Positions 1,743 through 11,027 of a DNA stretch of 34,218 nucleotides are shown piece after piece (positions within the stretch are counted from its first letter, which is position 1; each line of letters opens with the position of its first letter). The DNA lies in contig JBILFC010000001.1 of NCBI GenBank assembly GCA_044351785.1, positions 1-34,218 on the forward strand, written 5' to 3'. Made by a program: the position numbers and the translations under genes. Below the pieces are notes generated by a model, which made no database searches, was not told the DNA's origin, and saw only the letters and a list, made by a program, of their open reading frames with translations. This DNA comes from Bdellovibrionota bacterium. Lineage in GTDB: Bacteria > Bdellovibrionota_C > UBA2361 > SZUA-149 > DAOLCO01.

Positions 1743-4700
1743 ATGCCAAGTTGTATTAGGCTCATCAGTACTCGTTTAATTCTATTATTGTCTTTGATGA
1801 CAATAAATAGCTTTAATGCTGTTGCTGAGGATCAAGAAGTTACTCTATTTAGTCGCACCTTAAAAAATGGTGAACTAAGAGGTGAATCAGCTTTACTTGA
1901 AAAACCAGAAAAGACAGCCGGGATTCTATCAAATTTAATCACTAACACTAAAGTTATAAAAGATAATGGCCCATCATCTAATCGAGTAGATTTAGTATTT
2001 TTAGGCGATGGATATACAACCGGTGACTCTTCAAAGTTCGATTCTCAAGTGGTAAGCATCTCTGATGGTTTATTCCAACAAATGCCATTAAGTGAATATA
2101 AAAACTATTTCAATCTACATCAAGTTTTCTCACCATCAGTTCAATCTGGTATAGACAATGATGGACAACTTGGAATAGATAAAAATACGGTGTTGAATGG
2201 TAAATTTTATTGCCAAGACGTAAAGGAAAATATCTGCGTAGATGTATCTATCGCCTGGGAACTTGCTGCTCAAGCAAGAGACTTTGATCAAATTTCAGTT
2301 TTAGTAAACTCTAGCTCTGATGGGGGAACTGCCTATCCATTTAGCGATATCTCAGTGGTACCAGGAGGAAACGGTCTAGTAGCTAGTAATCTTGCTCACC
2401 AAGTGGGACATAGCTTTGCTAATCTTGCAGATGAATATGACAATGGTAGTTGGCCTACCTACACTGGCTTTGAACCAGCAGAACCAAATGTTTCTGCTCA
2501 AAATACTGAAGCCATGCTCACACAAAAACTTAAATGGCATCAATGGCTAAGCATAGATTCTGGCGCTAACTTTGGTGGAATAATAAATACCTATGAAGGT
2601 GCAATGGGTCATAAATATTCAATTTATAGGCCAACTGAAAACTCTAAGATGAGGAATCTAAATGCTCCATTCAATAACCCATCTATAGAATCTTTTATTA
2701 AAGAAATCTATAAAAAGGTAAAACCTATTGATAATGCAACGTCAGTGGAAACTCCTCTTACTGGTTCATCAGTGATAAGCGTAACCCCCCTTCAACCAAT
2801 CGGTAGAAACTTAACAATTCAGTGGTATGTAGATAACACTCCTATAGCAGGGGCTAATGCTAAAACTTTTAGACCAAATGACTACCCTATAAGTGATGGT
2901 ATGCATGCAATCTCAGTAGAGGTTTCAGATGATACTCCACTTCTAAAAGACGAAGCCTTTAGAACACAGTACATGAAGGAAAAACGCACTTGGAATGTAC
3001 CTATTGATCAAAATGCACCCATCATCACAAAACATCCTGCAAGTGTTTCTGTATTTATTGGAGCGACAACCAATCTATCGGTAACTGCCATTGGCGAAGA
3101 TCTAAAATACCAATGGTTTAAAAACGGCGTTAAAATTGACGGCGCTACTCAAACATCATATTTGACTCCAGGAGCAATAAGAGAAAAAGCTGACTACTAC
3201 GTAGAAGTCTCCAATGTTCAAGGTACCTTAAGAAGCAATACAGCTACTGTAAGTATTAAAAATAGACTACCCGCATATTCAGGTAGCACTTCATTAACTC
3301 TTTCTAGATTAGAAGAAAAAGAAATTGCTTTTGAAATTAACGATGAAGATGGTGACTCTCTATCTTCAGTTTATACAATTGAAGCCGCGACTAATACTGG
3401 CGTAACAGTTTCATTAGCTTCCAAGAGCCTTAAAATTAAAGCTAGCTCTGCTTACCTAGGACAATTTAGTATAAAATTAAATTTTACTGATTCTTATGAC
3501 ACAATTTCTATACCAATCTCGGTGAACGTTGTTAATAATGCTCCGGTCATTGATGCCATAAATGATTTAACTAGACTATGGACTACTGATAAAGCATCGG
3601 TTGAAATACTTGCTAGTGATAATGACAGCATGGACACAGTCAGTCTCTCTGCTAATCTTGCTACAGGATTCTCAGCACCTGTCAGCCTATCTATGAATGG
3701 TAAAGTGCTAAATATCGATCCGCAAGCAGGTTACTATGGTAAATTTAATGTAACGGTTAGGGCGACGGATGGATTTACAAACACATTTAGAACATTTTCC
3801 GTAAACTGGGCAAATGATAGCCCTGTAATAGATCAGGTGGCACCAATCCGCTCGCATTACAAAGTAGATAAAATTATAGTACCGATAAATGCGACCGATC
3901 CTAATGGTGACACATTACAACTTTCTGCTTCTATTTTGCCTATAAATAACCTAGTTACAGCTAGCTTAAGTGGCAAGACTCTTACCATAGATCCTTCCCC
4001 TACATATAGAGGAGCTAGTACTCTTCGTGTTACAGCTAGTGATAGTGCTCTTAGTAGTGTCATGAATACTAGTCTAGAAATTTATAATAATGCTCCAGTT
4101 ATTGCTCCGATTTCTGCAACAAATGTTAATCAGAATAAAAAATCAGTATCAATACCTGTATCAATATCAGACCCCGATCCAGAAGATAGCGCTACTTTAA
4201 CAAGCAGCGTTAGACTTCTTACTTCTGGAGCAAGTGGTGTTCAGGTTAAATTAGAAAATAACAACCTAATAGTCGAATCTAGTCAAAACTTTTCCGTACC
4301 TCTGTTAGTAGAAGTAAAAGCTACCGATGGAGATTTAACAGCAGTAAGAAATGTTTATCTTAGTGTACTTAATACAGCTCCCTTACTAACTAATATAGAT
4401 GAACAATTTATTCATCCTATTAAAGAAGACATAAGAACCATAGATTTAATAGCAACAGACATAGATAATGATAGTATTACGTATACCGCGGAAGTAGTAA
4501 AACCCAATGCCAAAGCCCCTACCCTATCTGTTTCAGGAAATAAATTATCCATCAATACTATCAACGACTTTCTTGGATCATTCACAATCAGAGTTATCGC
4601 TAGTGATGGCTTAAGTGAAGTAGCAAAAACATTCAAAGTCACAACTTATAATACAGATCCCGAGTTAAATGCCATTTGTGATCGTTCTGCACCGGCAACG

Positions 4701-7700
4701 AAGTTTCCAATAGAAATCCCGCTAATCGCATCAGATCCTGACAAAGAAGACTTAACTTTTGAAGGAAAAATTGAAAGAAATTCTTTACCATTTTTACTAA
4801 AGGCTAAATATAACTTTGACGCTATCAGATTTAGACCTAGTAATGGTCTAGGATTAGGTGAAAAGTATGTCAGTGGTTACGAAACAGACCCAGATATTAA
4901 ATTCTGGTACTATATTCTTCCTAATGGGGACCTATATAGGTTAAATAAAACACATAAGGAAAGCCAGTTCCTCCTAAAATTACCTGCAGGATACTATGAA
5001 AATCCCGATATCCTAATAAATGGTGATATCTCTGGAACTATTCTCAATGCTTTCTCAATATCTTTTGAGGGAAGTAAGCTTAAAGTTGCGCTCTCAAGAG
5101 CAGTACAAGGATCTGTTCAAATAAGGGTTAGAGCTAAAGATTACTTCTCATTTAATGAAAAATCTTTCATTCTAACTGTAACAGAAGGAAGATTAAAATT
5201 AGATGATGTTCCCGACATGAACATCCATTGGAAGGAAGAACCACGATCTGGATCATTAATAGCTAAAGATCCAGTAACTGGCTTAACACCAGATGATATG
5301 AGCTACGATGTGGCAGAATTTGACGGTTCTCTTGCAAAAAGTCTAGATGACCAATACAATTTTCATGTATCAAGAAATGATCAATATGATGCACAGATTC
5401 CACCTGATAACTTCACAAATAGAGGTGAGAAATATATTAGAGCTTACAAGATTAGTTATTTAAACAATGTACCTTCATACGCAGGGATTGATGTATTTGC
5501 GATACTTCCAAATGGTGATTTATATTTATCTCCACCAAAGGCTCAAAATACACAATACTACAGTTTAGAAAATGCTACATTAATAGCAGAACTTGATAAA
5601 GTCTATTATAGAGATACATCTTTACTAATCAATGCAGCAAGTGGAGCGGGAACAAATCTTATTATAAACGGAGATAATACTAGCTTCACGGTGGAACAAA
5701 CTCCTGGATTCTTAGGGAAAGTCATCTTAGAAGCAAGAGCATGGAAAGGTATCGCCTCAGACAGTAAAACATTTATTGTTAACATATACGACAATGAACC
5801 TACGCTGAATGTTCCACTTAATTGTGATGAATTTGGCTGCAAGTTAATAAGAAACTGGAAAACAAACGAAATTAGGCTTCCAATCACCCTCAGTGACGTT
5901 GACCCACTTGATAGTGTAACTTCTAAGGCCTTTGAAACGGATCCTTCCTTAAACCCAGCTAATTCAGCTTCTGAATATTCCCTAAAGTGGAATCATAAGA
6001 ATGGCCAATTCGATAGAGATGGCTGGAGAGAAATACATTTTGCAGGAACTTATCAAAACTCAGAAACTGATATCGCTTTAACTACTGATGGGAAATTATA
6101 TAAATGGAATGGTAATCCACAGAATAGCATTCTATTAACTCAAGTTCCTAGTTCATTCCATGAGCTAGGATACACCTTAGATTCTTCTGTCAATACTTCT
6201 AAGCCTAGCTTGTTAAATCATCCCGAAGTAAGAGTTGAAGGCTCTGAATTAGTAATTACCCCTAAAGCAAATACAGTTATAAATTCCGGTATAATAGGAT
6301 GGGCAAGCGACGGAATGAAACGCGGATTCCTCAAATTCCCCGTATTCATAATTAATCAGCAACCTCAAATTGGAGCCATTGCAGATAAAACTGTTCACTG
6401 GAGAGACAACCTCATTACCGAGAATATCTTGGTTAGTGATCCAGATGGAGACACCGTTTCAAACTTGAATCTGACAATCAATCCTATTAGCATTGATCCA
6501 GCTATCGATTATAATCTAACTAACCTAGTTCTTACTTTAAAATCTAAATTTGGATATTTAGGAACCTATTCATCCACAATCTTTGTGACTGATCAGGGTA
6601 ATCTAAGCAGTGCTCGATCATTTAATACTACAGTCTTCAATACTGCTCCAGTTCTAGAATCTATCGGCAATAAAGATATTGATTGGAATATGAATACGTT
6701 AGAAATTCCATTCACGATGAGCGATGCAGATGCTAATGACTCCGATAAGTTAATATCTATGGTATTTAACGGATCTGCTTCTGACTTTACCGATTTCCTA
6801 GTAAATAAGCACAAGTTTACTAAAACTGGAGCAGGTGCTACCAATTCTCTTGGACTATCTGAAGTACACTTCAAAGGTACAGTAGAGAATCAAAGTAGAG
6901 AATTTATAGTATTGCCCTCAGAGGCTATCTACCTTGTGAGTGGTACTAATTTAGAGATTAAAGGATTCCTAGCACCTGGTACATACAGTAACCCTAACAG
7001 ACTATTAAGCATTGTTAATCCGAACTTTGCTCCAAAACATTCTGTAAGCACCGACGGAACAAAAATCATTTTAAGTAAATCATCAGGGCTAACTGAACCA
7101 ATCATAGTTACAGCTTGGGCAACTGACACGATTCAAGCTACTTCTGAAACATTTACAGTAAATATCATAGACAACGCTCCAGTATTACCAGAGCTAGCGA
7201 CAAGCTATGAAAGACATTGGAGACCAGGGCTACTAGAACTTCCTAATTTCCCTTCAATTGACGAAGAAGGTGAAACCATTAATTATCAAGTAACTTCAAG
7301 TCCAGCAGGATTACAACACTCTATTAGCTCTAGTATTCTTTCTGTAAAACCAACTAATGCTAATCAAATTGGAAATTACACTGTAAACATAGTAGCAACT
7401 TCAGGATCTAAATCTTCAAGCAAGTCCTTTAGCTATAACTTAACAAATGGTGCTCCATCAATTGCACCTCTAGGAGCACAGACCGTCGTTGGTTACAAAG
7501 AATCTTACTCTCAACCCTTTACCGCAACAGATCCAAATTCAGATCCTCTAACTTATACTACCAGCCTAGTAGGACCTTCACCATCTAACTTCTTAGTTGC
7601 TGTAGCTGGATCTACGATTAAAGTTTCTCCTAAAACTCCGCTAGCAGGTACTTACACTATAAACCTAAAAGCTTCAGATGGGCCTTCTTCAGCAGATGCT

Positions 7701-10700
7701 TCAACACAAATAATTTTCCAAAATAGAGCGCCAACATTTAATGTTCCGTCAGCGATGGATATCCCATGGAAAACAAAAGTGGGTAGTCAAACTCTAGTTT
7801 TCAGTGATCCTGATGATGACACTCTAACCTTGACCCCTACCATCAGTGATCCTACTGTAGCCACTGCTGTGATAAGCGGAAATAAAATAAATATCGATCT
7901 AAAGAAATATGCTCCAAGTTTTATAGTTAAAATAAGATTAAGCGATGGAGCTAACTCTATAGACAGAGAATTCCCTGTTTCAGTTAGCAATCTTAAACCA
8001 ACTCTAACAGGCTTACCACCAACTAAAGACATACACTGGAATACAAATTCATTTACGCAATCATTCACAGTAGCAGATGCAAACAATGACACTTTAACAG
8101 TTACATCTAAAATACTAAATAACACAGTTCCTGCTAGCGTAACTATTACAAATAGCCTCGCTACTATAGATGTTACAGAAAAGAAAATGGGCGAATTAAA
8201 CTTAAATATAAAAGTTGCTGACGATGTCTCAAGCACTGAAGGCAACATGAAAGTTACCTTTACTAATACAAAACCTAAAATCTCAGAAATTGCTAACCAA
8301 ATTATTTCAACTGGCATAGAAAAGACTCTTGAACTAGAAGCCTCAGACGCCAATAGTGATGAATTAACACTTTCCGCTATAAAAATGTCTTTGGAAGAAG
8401 TTGCGTTTGACCTAGATAAAATGTTTAACTTTGAACAAGGCGAAACCAACTTTGGATTTAATAAATTAGGTAATAACGAAAAATACCTAAGAGGTAGCGA
8501 TCCTGTAAGAAAAACTCCTCTTAATTTTGTTATCTATCCTAATGGCAGACTATATATCTGGACTGGAATATTAACGAATAGCACTTTTTTAGGAAGTATT
8601 CCTACCGAATTGCATGCCAACCCTACTCTCCTTATCAACGCTATTGCTCCAAATGCTTCAAATATTTCTTATACCGCAAGCATAACTGGTTCTACATTGA
8701 AATTAAAAGCAATTAACGACTTTGAAGGAACCTTCTGGATTAGAGCGGCAGCCACAGATACTCAAGAATTAGCACCAATGTATTTTAGAGTTAATTCCTA
8801 TAAGGAAGTTACTTCAGGTGGTGGCACTGATCCAAAAGAGTGCGAAACTAAAGAGACAGAACACGACGGAGAATGCAGTCAATCTGGGAAGTCAATGTTC
8901 ACTGCCGAAGGCAGAATAGGAGATACTGTGACTGGGGCAGGAAATAGAACTTTTGAATTAGATATTGGCAAAAGTACTAGTGGGCCTTTTGCTAGTGGAC
9001 AAACAAGTAATCATATTTGGGTAAGTGGAAAGAAAGAAAGCTTCTCAATAACTTTTGATCCAATTAATAAAGTATGTAATTTTGTATTAGGAGGGAAAAC
9101 CGTAGTATATAAAATTACAGAAGATGTATTCTCTCTTAGTGACATTTTAATAAGAACTAGACGAGGGAATACTCAGTCCAGTATGAAAATTGATTCTCTA
9201 AAAATCAATGGTAAAACAATTTCTAATTCCGTGTACGCTGATGGGAATTCTAACCAAGTGCGAACTCTACAAATTCGTTCAGTGAAGGAACTAAAGGATA
9301 AATTCACCTTAGAGGGTGCTGCTACTATGATATTCTCCTCTGATGTGAAGAATTCAGAACTTGCATTCCAAATATCCTTTACGAAATCAGACAATGCGCC
9401 TGAGACTTGTGAAGATAGCGATGAAGATGATCATGATGACGACGATTCAGATCACGATGATGAAGACGATAATGATGACGATGATTCTAACTCCAGAAAA
9501 GTAAAAATATGTCATTATCCTCCAGGAAATACCTCTAACCCACAGACAATTACTGTTTCTAAGTCTTCATTATCAGCTCACTTAGCACACGGCGATGTGA
9601 TTGGAGAATGTCCAGGCGATCCTCAAGATCCAGGCACGGGTGAAATTTCATGCGAAGCTAAGCAGTTGTTTGCTAGCCCTAACTACACTCTTTGGAATAG
9701 CTTCTTAAATATGATCAATATTCTAGAATTGACTAACTCTACAGCTAACCCAATTCCAGTGAAGATCTCCTTCTTCTCAATATTAGGTGAGCTTGCACAT
9801 GAAAGAACAATAGTTGTCCCAGCGACTAACCAGTTCGACGTTATTATCAATGATTTCCCTGGATTCGTGAAAGATTCCTATGGTGTTGTAAAACTCGAGT
9901 TTACTGGAAATCTTGATGGTAGAATGAGTTTCTATAGACCTACAACTGGTCTTACTTCTTATGACTATGCATATTCAATTCCTTTAGCTGATGCGAATTT
10001 TGGAACAACTGCAATAAGTTTCAATACCTTCCAACCAAGTCAAAAGCCTTCTGAGCTTAATAACTTAGTAGCTAACTGGTTAAGTATAGTAAATCTTGAT
10101 TCAGCGACACAAAAATATAGTGTCTTCACTTATGATATGTCTGGAAAACTTATTCTTAGAAGAGAGCTTGAAATTCCTTCATTCGGAAGAGCCGATGTCG
10201 ATGGTGGCCATGGTCTTGCAGGCCCTAATGTAGTCGGTTACCATAAGGTTATCCCCTACAATGTGACAGCGGAATACATCGCTCAAATAACTAGATTCGG
10301 TGGGAATGCTGCTGCTGGATTTGCCCCTTCAGCATATAAATTTGCCTTCCCATTATCCGCTAAGCTTGGTGCAAGCGATCCTATTTATGTTCCAATTTCG
10401 AATAAATTCGGGGAATCAAATTGGATAGAAGTTGTAAATATTCTTGATCAAACAGTACAAGCTGCAATCAACTACTACTCAATTGATGGTAGGTTACTTG
10501 AATCTGCAGATGCTTACATCCCAGGGAATGCTCAAATACATTTTAATGCTAGTGCTCAATTAGCAAGTGGAGAGACTGGTTATGCCGTAGTCGTTCCAAG
10601 CACTCCATATTCAATTGTTGCTCAAAGTATGGGTTACCTTAGAGAGCAAGCAACTGGCAGCGTAACTTCAGTTTATGGATCTCAAGCTAGAAGAGCTGTA

Positions 10701-11027
10701 CCTTGTGTTCAATCTGGCGCTTACAACTTATATCTAAATATGCAAAACTGGTTACTAGTTGCAAATACTACTAATGACACTATAAAAGCCGTGGTAAAAT
10801 TCACTGGACCTAATCTAGCTAGCCAGAAGTCCCTAACCCTCGCTCCTAGGGCATCTGTTTACCTACCAATTCATGGCAATACGGAAATTGGTGCTAAAGC
10901 AGATACTTATGGACTCATCGCGGTATATCCCGAGGATTCTTCTCTAAGATTATTCTCCGAAGTTATGAGACTTAAGTATAAGGCTGATGGTTCACCTGAC
11001 TTCTCAATGCCAGTCCCAGTTAGATAA
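1743..11027 (+). CDS. Giant (3,094 aa) secreted mosaic surface protein with an M64-like domain carrying HQVGH, Ig-like domain, 15 cadherin-like repeats and a composite C-terminal region
   Basis: Single uninterrupted ORF starting 15 nt after the S8 stop. N-terminal signal peptide (LILLLSLMTINSFNAVA/ED). M64 signature RVDLVFLGDGYT ... LVNSSSDGG ... AHQVGHSFANLADEYD. Ig-like segment KYQWFKNGVKIDGATQTSY...YYVEVSNVQG (~3015-3260). Repeats carry [ST]D[PA][DN]xDxL motifs (3261-8803). C-terminal modules occupy 8804-11024. Confidence 0.9.
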   Translation: MPSCIRLISTRLILLLSLMTINSFNAVAEDQEVTLFSRTLKNGELRGESALLEKPEKTAGILSNLITNTKVIKDNGPSSNRVDLVFLGDGYTTGDSSKFDSQVVSISDGLFQQMPLSEYKNYFNLHQVFSPSVQSGIDNDGQLGIDKNTVLNGKFYCQDVKENICVDVSIAWELAAQARDFDQISVLVNSSSDGGTAYPFSDISVVPGGNGLVASNLAHQVGHSFANLADEYDNGSWPTYTGFEPAEPNVSAQNTEAMLTQKLKWHQWLSIDSGANFGGIINTYEGAMGHKYSIYRPTENSKMRNLNAPFNNPSIESFIKEIYKKVKPIDNATSVETPLTGSSVISVTPLQPIGRNLTIQWYVDNTPIAGANAKTFRPNDYPISDGMHAISVEVSDDTPLLKDEAFRTQYMKEKRTWNVPIDQNAPIITKHPASVSVFIGATTNLSVTAIGEDLKYQWFKNGVKIDGATQTSYLTPGAIREKADYYVEVSNVQGTLRSNTATVSIKNRLPAYSGSTSLTLSRLEEKEIAFEINDEDGDSLSSVYTIEAATNTGVTVSLASKSLKIKASSAYLGQFSIKLNFTDSYDTISIPISVNVVNNAPVIDAINDLTRLWTTDKASVEILASDNDSMDTVSLSANLATGFSAPVSLSMNGKVLNIDPQAGYYGKFNVTVRATDGFTNTFRTFSVNWANDSPVIDQVAPIRSHYKVDKIIVPINATDPNGDTLQLSASILPINNLVTASLSGKTLTIDPSPTYRGASTLRVTASDSALSSVMNTSLEIYNNAPVIAPISATNVNQNKKSVSIPVSISDPDPEDSATLTSSVRLLTSGASGVQVKLENNNLIVESSQNFSVPLLVEVKATDGDLTAVRNVYLSVLNTAPLLTNIDEQFIHPIKEDIRTIDLIATDIDNDSITYTAEVVKPNAKAPTLSVSGNKLSINTINDFLGSFTIRVIASDGLSEVAKTFKVTTYNTDPELNAICDRSAPATKFPIEIPLIASDPDKEDLTFEGKIERNSLPFLLKAKYNFDAIRFRPSNGLGLGEKYVSGYETDPDIKFWYYILPNGDLYRLNKTHKESQFLLKLPAGYYENPDILINGDISGTILNAFSISFEGSKLKVALSRAVQGSVQIRVRAKDYFSFNEKSFILTVTEGRLKLDDVPDMNIHWKEEPRSGSLIAKDPVTGLTPDDMSYDVAEFDGSLAKSLDDQYNFHVSRNDQYDAQIPPDNFTNRGEKYIRAYKISYLNNVPSYAGIDVFAILPNGDLYLSPPKAQNTQYYSLENATLIAELDKVYYRDTSLLINAASGAGTNLIINGDNTSFTVEQTPGFLGKVILEARAWKGIASDSKTFIVNIYDNEPTLNVPLNCDEFGCKLIRNWKTNEIRLPITLSDVDPLDSVTSKAFETDPSLNPANSASEYSLKWNHKNGQFDRDGWREIHFAGTYQNSETDIALTTDGKLYKWNGNPQNSILLTQVPSSFHELGYTLDSSVNTSKPSLLNHPEVRVEGSELVITPKANTVINSGIIGWASDGMKRGFLKFPVFIINQQPQIGAIADKTVHWRDNLITENILVSDPDGDTVSNLNLTINPISIDPAIDYNLTNLVLTLKSKFGYLGTYSSTIFVTDQGNLSSARSFNTTVFNTAPVLESIGNKDIDWNMNTLEIPFTMSDADANDSDKLISMVFNGSASDFTDFLVNKHKFTKTGAGATNSLGLSEVHFKGTVENQSREFIVLPSEAIYLVSGTNLEIKGFLAPGTYSNPNRLLSIVNPNFAPKHSVSTDGTKIILSKSSGLTEPIIVTAWATDTIQATSETFTVNIIDNAPVLPELATSYERHWRPGLLELPNFPSIDEEGETINYQVTSSPAGLQHSISSSILSVKPTNANQIGNYTVNIVATSGSKSSSKSFSYNLTNGAPSIAPLGAQTVVGYKESYSQPFTATDPNSDPLTYTTSLVGPSPSNFLVAVAGSTIKVSPKTPLAGTYTINLKASDGPSSADASTQIIFQNRAPTFNVPSAMDIPWKTKVGSQTLVFSDPDDDTLTLTPTISDPTVATAVISGNKINIDLKKYAPSFIVKIRLSDGANSIDREFPVSVSNLKPTLTGLPPTKDIHWNTNSFTQSFTVADANNDTLTVTSKILNNTVPASVTITNSLATIDVTEKKMGELNLNIKVADDVSSTEGNMKVTFTNTKPKISEIANQIISTGIEKTLELEASDANSDELTLSAIKMSLEEVAFDLDKMFNFEQGETNFGFNKLGNNEKYLRGSDPVRKTPLNFVIYPNGRLYIWTGILTNSTFLGSIPTELHANPTLLINAIAPNASNISYTASITGSTLKLKAINDFEGTFWIRAAATDTQELAPMYFRVNSYKEVTSGGGTDPKECETKETEHDGECSQSGKSMFTAEGRIGDTVTGAGNRTFELDIGKSTSGPFASGQTSNHIWVSGKKESFSITFDPINKVCNFVLGGKTVVYKITEDVFSLSDILIRTRRGNTQSSMKIDSLKINGKTISNSVYADGNSNQVRTLQIRSVKELKDKFTLEGAATMIFSSDVKNSELAFQISFTKSDNAPETCEDSDEDDHDDDDSDHDDEDDNDDDDSNSRKVKICHYPPGNTSNPQTITVSKSSLSAHLAHGDVIGECPGDPQDPGTGEISCEAKQLFASPNYTLWNSFLNMINILELTNSTANPIPVKISFFSILGELAHERTIVVPATNQFDVIINDFPGFVKDSYGVVKLEFTGNLDGRMSFYRPTTGLTSYDYAYSIPLADANFGTTAISFNTFQPSQKPSELNNLVANWLSIVNLDSATQKYSVFTYDMSGKLILRRELEIPSFGRADVDGGHGLAGPNVVGYHKVIPYNVTAEYIAQITRFGGNAAAGFAPSAYKFAFPLSAKLGASDPIYVPISNKFGESNWIEVVNILDQTVQAAINYYSIDGRLLESADAYIPGNAQIHFNASAQLASGETGYAVVVPSTPYSIVAQSMGYLREQATGSVTSVYGSQARRAVPCVQSGAYNLYLNMQNWLLVANTTNDTIKAVVKFTGPNLASQKSLTLAPRASVYLPIHGNTEIGAKADTYGLIAVYPEDSSLRLFSEVMRLKYKADGSPDFSMPVPVR
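3261..8803 (+). repeat. Array of 15 diverged ~90-aa cadherin-like/Ig-like repeats inside the giant CDS; five carry a roughly 75-100 aa insert
   Basis: Recurrent unit boundaries N[NTD]APV[IL]. Acidic motifs SDNDSMD, TDPNGDTL, SDPDPEDS, TDIDNDSI, SDPDKEDL, SDPDGDTV, SDADANDS, TDPNSDPL, SDPDDDTL, ADANNDTL, SDANSDEL. Each unit closes with ...G.F.i.v.a.Dg. The repeats are conserved at protein level only, with no long identical DNA blocks seen. Confidence 0.8.
9411..9485 (+). repeat. GAT/GAC/GAA-rich low-complexity tract encoding EDSDEDDHDDDDSDHDDEDDNDDDD
   Basis: Read codon by codon from 9411: 25 consecutive codons, of which 21 encode D or E, interspersed with H, S and N. Confidence 0.9.

Follow-up and report, generated by a model that had tools for sequence, protein, structure and literature searches.

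The giant protein and its C-terminal region

The stretch of DNA analysed here (the window) comprises positions 1 to 34,218, read on the forward strand, of contig JBILFC010000001.1 (34,218 nucleotides) in GenBank assembly GCA_044351785.1, a metagenome-assembled genome (MAG) of a Bdellovibrionota bacterium that consists of 371 contigs and is 82% complete. It carries a giant open reading frame (ORF) whose product, of 3094 residues, ends in a composite C-terminal region. This region makes up the final 741 residues and consists of four parts, all of which lie in the frame of the ORF (Table 1). It is a chain of four independent modules, namely a choice-of-anchor W domain, an acidic spacer, a Cys/His (CH) module and a tetrad of repeats that resemble those of the ASRAH superfamily. 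In parts 1 and 4 the region has new members of known, experimentally untried kinds of domain, part 2 is an ordinary variable linker, and the remaining novelty of the region is carried by part 3, the CH module.

The four parts had been delineated in an initial annotation made from the sequence without database searches, and every peptide string quoted there is present in the translation of the ORF. The spans needed small adjustments. The region described as part 1 exists, its start in codon phase being 8802 and not 8804, and all four repeats of part 4 are present, the block beginning at 9675, slightly upstream of 9687. The same annotation could place no part of the region in a characterised family, which still holds for the CH module; part 1, however, is a member of NF041928 (117.7 bits) and part 4 belongs to the ASRAH superfamily.

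A higher local GC content had also been pointed out in this region. GC content was 0.374 in part 1, 0.40 in the acidic tract, 0.419 in the CH module with its linker and 0.398 in the repeats, against 0.364 in the stalk and 0.377 in the window as a whole. The rise is small and the C-terminal region stays inside the per-kb range of the window (0.33-0.41), and it is not a meaningful feature. A foreign origin of the region was considered and rejected, given a GC difference of 0.03 and orthologues that are collinear.

Table 1. Position of the giant ORF and of the modules in its C-terminal region (window coordinates; residues numbered in the ORF product).
Feature	Position (nt)	Strand	Residues (aa)	Remarks
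Giant ORF	1743..11027	+		3094 aa; N-terminal signal-peptide-like leader, M64-like head, Ig/cadherin-like stalk, then the composite C-terminal region
Choice-of-anchor W domain	8862..9380	+	2374-2546	All-beta, predicted concanavalin-A-like jelly-roll; NF041928, AlphaFold2, Foldseek
Acidic D/E/H low-complexity linker	9411..9485	+	2557-2581	Imperfect GAT/GAC repeat; disordered
Cys/His (CH) mini-module	9498..9617	+	2586-2625	KVKICHYPPGN...AHLAHGDVIGECPG; profile A6
ASRAH-like repeat 1	9675..10001	+	2645-2753	Hallmark Asn N2665; pocket-position Glu E2662
ASRAH-like repeat 2	10002..10376	+	2754-2878	NWLSIVN; hallmark Asn N2784; conserved DxDGGH loop
ASRAH-like repeat 3	10377..10703	+	2879-2987	NWIEVVN; hallmark Asn N2899; pocket-position Glu E2896; conserved QxH
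ASRAH-like repeat 4	10704..11024	+	2988-3094	NWLLVAN; hallmark Asn N3008; protein end

Four homologous repeats of the ASRAH superfamily

Part 4 had been proposed to contain four homologous repeats of about 115 residues. Direct alignment of one repeat with another gave identities of 22-24%, and Smith-Waterman scores compared with those of shuffled sequences gave z values of 1.7-9.4, exceeding 5 in four of the six repeat pairs. Alignment of per-repeat profiles, the test that had been fixed beforehand for this proposal, was carried out with hhalign on profiles built from 46 homologues and succeeded for all six pairs, with probabilities of 97.4-98.9% and E-values from 9e-12 to 3e-17. The four repeats are thus homologous, and all full-length homologues of the block keep them in a fixed order. 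The motif NW[LI]x[IV]xN by which they had been recognised is exact in repeats 2-4, its place in repeat 1 being taken by NILELTN.

An AlphaFold2 (AF2) model of the tetrad, calculated from the 46-sequence alignment, had a predicted local distance difference test score (pLDDT) of 95.1 and a predicted template modelling score (pTM) of 0.92, and DSSP assigned eight strands, folded as a beta-sandwich, to every repeat. The high pTM points to a fixed arrangement of the four repeats rather than to beads on a string, and the tetrad is predicted to form one compact unit. A reading of the block as an outer-membrane beta-barrel or autotransporter was dropped, since the model consists of four soluble sandwiches and the block is also N-terminal in some proteins.

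The ASRAH superfamily was defined by De Souza, Iyer and Aravind in 2009 (PMC2739507). Its hallmarks are an eight-stranded sandwich, an Asn that ends strand 2 and fixes a tight turn, and a Trp that follows a polar residue and opens strand 1; its members form tetramers or covalent dyads or tetrads, and the cleft lined by strand 2 is the predicted sugar pocket (PMC2739507). When a single repeat of the window protein was compared with solved structures, Foldseek matched it to TM1070 (1nc7) with a probability of 1.0 and a target-normalised TM-score (TMt) of 0.68-0.70. A merged profile of the repeats (alignment A4) found ASRT (2ii7) as its best sequence match in the PDB, at an E-value of 0.0098; this repeat-only alignment was the one used for the PDB search, the matches of alignment A3 being dominated by partner trypsin domains. 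The repeat profile also aligned by hhalign with an alignment of the ASRT family, at 91.9% probability and E 7e-7 over 76 columns. Moreover, four Asn residues that are nearly invariant in 46 sequences (N22, N141, N256 and N365 of the 451-residue block) align with the Asn of the ASRT strand ...CILN, and a near-invariant Glu in repeats 1 and 3 (E2662 and E2896) takes the aligned position of the Cys that contacts the ligand in ASRT. The repeats of part 4 are members of the ASRT/TM1070 (ASRAH) superfamily, with a relation to ASRT that is remote and lies at superfamily level only.

Pfam and NCBIfam scans of part 4 alone and a PDB sequence search with the raw 741-residue region returned no match, and Foldseek found no solved structure like the block as a whole (query-normalised TM-score, TMq, of 0.20 or less). 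With the whole tetrad as query, chains of alpha-2-macroglobulin, complement, Cry and binary toxins were also listed (TM 0.10-0.18); these were rejected as generic similarity between arrays of beta-sandwiches. PF07100, the Pfam family of ASRT (gathering cut-off 25 bits), found nothing at E<=1 in the whole genome and nothing in the window block. Relatives of the tetrad did, on the other hand, match the Pfam family DUF5719 (PF18986), on which no paper was found in the literature searched. At E<=0.1 there were matches in 28 of the 46 relatives scanned (best 4.6e-7), and at E<=1e-3 in 15 of a set of 60 (best 4e-10); they covered the first ~50 residues of the repeats and profile positions ~60-130. 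Some relatives pass the cut-off of 26.2 bits, P0153 for example scoring 29.7 bits, whereas paralogues from the same genome as the window reach only 12-17 bits and the tetrad of the window protein has no match at all. We infer that DUF5719 is the actinobacterial ASRAH dyad family.

The tetrad resembles ASRAH family 2, the N-acetylmuramoyl-L-alanine amidases of Chloroflexi, which are also secreted and carry four tandem, eight-stranded beta-sandwiches of about 110 residues fused to a hydrolase (PMC2739507). There too an Asn ends strand 2, and an assembly like that of the ASRT/TM1070 tetramer has been proposed for the repeats, together with binding to sugars of the cell wall (PMC2739507). In contrast, the host here is a member of the Bdellovibrionota, and instead of amidases the block is carried mainly by peptidases and by giant proteins that resemble adhesins. 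The window block also forms a sequence family of its own (578 representatives at E<1e-30), the Chloroflexi proteins having been compared by description only. With ASRT (2II7) and TM1070 (1NC7), both of PF07100, the repeats share the fold, a remote sequence similarity and the aligned hallmark Asn. However, ASRT and TM1070 each have a single domain, form homotetramers in the cytoplasm and contain an SHEshChhN pocket strand, whereas here four unlike repeats lie on one secreted chain, and in repeats 1 and 3 a conserved Glu stands where the pocket has its Cys. A diderm, possibly predatory lineage is thus added to those in which the ASRAH tetrad occurs.

Distribution, partners and putative role of the tetrad

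The genome from which the window derives contains eight matches to the tetrad block, and the carriers comprise M11/M66-like and reprolysin-like metallopeptidases, a trypsin-like protease, an FN3 array, TSP3 repeats, a beta-helix protein and a DUF1800 protein. A library of 1.84 billion proteins yielded 3252 matches to the block at E<1e-3; with the threshold set at E<1e-30, 578 cluster representatives remained. Among the 146 best homologues, the block was at the extreme C-terminus in 126, N-terminal in 5 and stand-alone or a fragment in 14. Peptidases made up most of the partners found in 60 representatives (M12 in about 15, S1 in 8, M11 in 8, M10 in 4 and S8 in 3), further partners being Cupredoxin, CHRD, CarboxypepD_reg, FG-GAP and Ig domains. 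The tetrad was present in 27 of 30 genomes of the host order, often with at least 13 matches per genome and with up to 51 first-look candidates; outside the order, in a phylum-wide set of 124 genomes in all, it appeared only as weak single matches in one genus. A scan for related loci that started from the protein alone returned just two.

Two variant arrangements were also observed. The reversed order, with the tetrad N-terminal, was seen in four or five of the 146 best library matches; in the same genome as the window, the protein encoded at C22:4606-7656(+) has the tetrad right behind the signal peptide, followed by DUF1800 (E 4e-68). A single ASRAH-like repeat occupies the C-terminus of four small secreted-looking proteins of that genome (237-281 aa), encoded at C53:21679-22425(-), C326:9039-9875(+), C15:2747-3589(+) and C136:2-712(-). 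In these the repeat is preceded by an N-domain of about 120 residues with a conserved SYCC(E/D/T), and the C53 copy, which was scanned, had no Pfam match.

The distribution bears on what the tetrad may do. More than half of the partners are peptidases, the block sits almost always at the extreme C-terminus and macroglobulin-type domain arrays were among the Foldseek matches, so that it could be envisaged as a C-terminal pro-domain, intramolecular chaperone or latency domain of peptidases, cleaved after export like PPC and other C-terminal extensions. We consider this very unlikely, as some carriers of the tetrad are not proteases, the tetrad can also be N-terminal (5/146) or stand-alone, and the TM-scores to macroglobulin are just 0.10-0.18, a generic similarity between beta-sandwich arrays.

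A taxonomically restricted, multi-copy block which is almost always extreme C-terminal on secreted proteins, and which here comes after a choice-of-anchor domain, might likewise be a lineage-specific export or sorting domain, read by dedicated outer-membrane machinery in the manner of the C-terminal domain (CTD) of the type IX secretion system (T9SS). This seems to us scarcely credible. At 450 residues the tetrad has several times the length of known sorting domains (~70-100 aa), N-terminal (5/146) and stand-alone positions occur, and no candidate partner machinery was identified. The same superfamily is moreover found in monoderm Actinobacteria and Chloroflexi, and as the cytoplasmic ASRT (PMC2739507). 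The T9SS CTD family PF18962 itself gave no more than a weak match (E 0.004) to 3 of the 46 relatives, and the tetrad is not a short, obligatory C-terminal domain.

Orthologous giant proteins were compared along their length to see which end is conserved, the initial annotation having suggested a check on whether the C-terminal region is swapped between orthologues over a conserved stalk. The reverse was found. The tetrad is the most conserved segment, with identities of 61-65%, against about 50% for the N-terminal head and 28-34% for the stalk; the architecture is collinear and there is no swapping. As the tetrad is both the most conserved segment and common to many unrelated secreted proteins, it looks like a shared binding or tethering end. 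The proposal that it forms the functional tip of this particular protein was not upheld, the tetrad being a generic block and not a protein-specific head.

The explanation which we regard as probable is that of a four-module chain in which the tetrad serves as a glycan tether. Its four repeats would together make a compact, pseudo-tetrameric unit that binds carbohydrate and keeps its cargo on a polysaccharide, and would in this way tether not just the giant protein but no fewer than seven further secreted proteins of the genome, most of them peptidases. By analogy with other ASRAH proteins we infer that it most likely binds a carbohydrate polymer, and the ligand and the orientation on the cell are proposed in the same sense. 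The polysaccharide would most likely belong to the cell's own envelope, a placement to which we give a little less than an even chance, or alternatively to a target or prey surface. The protein would then be attached by its C-terminus, at the base of the stalk, and the M64-like head at the N-terminus would form the distal end, which reverses the earlier picture. The CH module would act at least as a rigid spacer, to which a disulfide or a bound metal may lend stability. What appeared to be a unique head would, on this explanation, be a standard tethering cassette fitted to a large share of the peptidases and adhesins that the order secretes.

The host phylum contains predators, and this counts in favour of a different use of the same binding activity, in which the tetrad would be a carbohydrate-binding module that targets the peptidases and the giant protein to a substrate or prey. 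The surface reached would be a foreign one, whether prey cell wall, biofilm matrix or detritus, and the C-terminus would be the working tip. The partners are indeed mostly degradative enzymes, stand-alone and N-terminal tetrads exist, and the amidase-linked ASRAH tetrads of Chloroflexi have been proposed to bind elements of peptidoglycan (PMC2739507). However, the same block is found on non-enzymatic FN3, TSP3 and Ig proteins, the adjoining type of domain, choice-of-anchor, is named for neighbouring anchoring signals, and no sign of predation was obtained for this uncultured order. We therefore hold targeting to a foreign surface to be somewhat unlikely.

Several points weigh against the tether proposed above, with regard to both the superfamily assignment and the function. 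Taken alone, the similarity in sequence to ASRT is marginal (E 0.01), and the E-value of the hhalign comparison with the ASRT family is pairwise and not corrected for a database. The window tetrad passes no Pfam threshold, that of DUF5719 included. The Trp hallmark of strand 1 is found in repeat 1 only (LWN); in repeats 2-4 strand 1 has F or Y, and the conserved N-W opens strand 2 instead. A single-chain pseudo-tetramer mimicking the TM1070 tetramer would have as its only basis the pTM of 0.92 and the literature. To our knowledge there is no binding assay for any ASRAH domain, sugar binding being a prediction made in 2009. Finally, the results presented here fit anchoring to the cell's own surface and targeting to a substrate or prey alike. 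The ASRAH tetrad is widespread while its function is only predicted, and a single binding experiment would annotate hundreds of protein families.

Modules preceding the tetrad

Part 1 matched the NCBIfam model of the choice-of-anchor W domain, NF041928, over profile positions 28-195 of 196, with an E-value of 4.7e-34 and a score far above the cut-off (117.7 bits against 45). An AF2 model calculated from a 13-sequence alignment was all-beta with a core pLDDT of 84-96, and Foldseek related it to legume lectins of the concanavalin A type with a probability of 1.0 and an E-value of 1e-5, at TM-scores of 0.34-0.45 and identities of 10-15%. The jelly-roll or lectin fold that had been read from the sequence is thus borne out at the level of the fold. 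On the model, the likeness to lectins appears to be one of fold only and not of family; a Pfam scan of part 1 gave no match, lectin families included, and fold similarity alone links it to the legume-lectin/concanavalin A family.

Homologues of the W domain in MAGs of Latescibacterota and Eisenbacteria are small proteins of 212-312 residues that score 91-197 bits on the same model. In contrast to the window protein, which continues with the linker, the CH module and the tetrad, these small homologues stop at a short tail, TWGxIKxLFR, which closes seven of the eight that were aligned (P0181-P0187). The tail looks like a short C-terminal sorting signal; in P0181, P0184 and P0185, the three that were scanned, NCBIfam matched only the W domain. 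The literature that mentions 'choice-of-anchor' says nothing of type W.

The acidic tract that follows, at 9411-9485, translates exactly as EDSDEDDHDDDDSDHDDEDDNDDDD. Its DNA was resolved by Tandem Repeats Finder (TRF) into an imperfect repeat with periods of 3 (10 copies), 12 and 24 (2.8 copies), and the tract is disordered in the AF2 model, with a pLDDT of about 42-50. Relatives differ in this segment. P0003, whose tail is 98% identical, has a tract that is two residues longer and carries substitutions, P0004 has a shorter one of G/E/D composition, and in P0005, in L009 (tail 83% identical) and in L010 it is almost absent. The tract is a disordered, fast-evolving spacer, and both the flexible, length-variable linker and the triplet-repeat coding that had been anticipated were confirmed. 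Three paralogues from the same genome (C79, C268 and C243) carry a D-rich bacterial TSP3 repeat (DxDxDGxxDxxE...DP) directly before the tetrad, which is the position of the D/E/H tract and CH module in the window protein, and TSP3_bac is a frequent partner of the tetrad (6/46 and 7/60 family members). With a D-rich repeat at the same position in the paralogues, an acidic, possibly Ca-binding hinge is a reasonable reading of the tract.

The segment at 9510-9611, which encodes CHYPPGN...GEC, lies within a somewhat wider CH module (Table 1). In all, 64 instances of the module were aligned, and the profile A6, built from 38 of them, scored the copy in the window at E 4.5e-22. In the A6 alignment C5, H6, H28, D33 and C38 are invariant and H31, G32 and G36 nearly so, and the consensus reads KxTICHxPPGNPxNxxTITIxxSALxAHLAHGDxxGxC. 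The module matched no Pfam or NCBIfam family, the array proteins described below included, its profile had no match among PDB sequences at E<=10, and strings of the motif were not found in the literature searched. A small conserved Cys/His module, unnamed in Pfam, NCBIfam and the PDB, has thus been isolated. AF2 modelled it with low confidence (pLDDT 53-63) as a beta-hairpin followed by a helix. The conserved set of Cys, His and Asp residues suggests a knot that may be closed by a disulfide or bind a metal. That the module, written as xITICHxPPGNPxNxxTIxIxxSALxAHLxHGDxxGxC, is a new extracellular metal-binding or redox mini-domain we consider unlikely; in a related second reading, the module and the D/E/H tract together would provide a metal-dependent stiffness or switch at the junction before the tetrad.

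The proposal that similar Cys/His motifs recur in other secreted proteins without an assigned family proved correct. Within its own genome the CH module is unique to the window protein, and across the host phylum it occurs in 27 of 124 genomes, with 1-6 copies each, in a pattern independent of that of the tetrad. The library search also found tandem arrays in the metagenomic proteins P0047, P0060, P0066 and P0123, with 9-23 matched stretches each. In P0060 (1224 aa) a plastocyanin-like N-terminus, itself a weak match (TIGR02656, E 2.9e-4, 21 bits against a cut-off of 88), comes before 10-13 CH modules with Pro-rich linkers between them and then a hydrophobic segment. Of the contexts found, this protein is the most suggestive of a metal-related role for the module.

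Two orthologues of the giant protein, P0008 and P0010, are without the CH module and have a DUF642-like domain in its place. In these, which were aligned to about 9300-9620 of the window, the DUF642-like domain, of about 130 residues, separates the last strand of the W domain (KNSELAFQIS) from the main part of that domain. With the DUF642-like domain in and the CH module out, the junction before the tetrad is a hotspot of module exchange.

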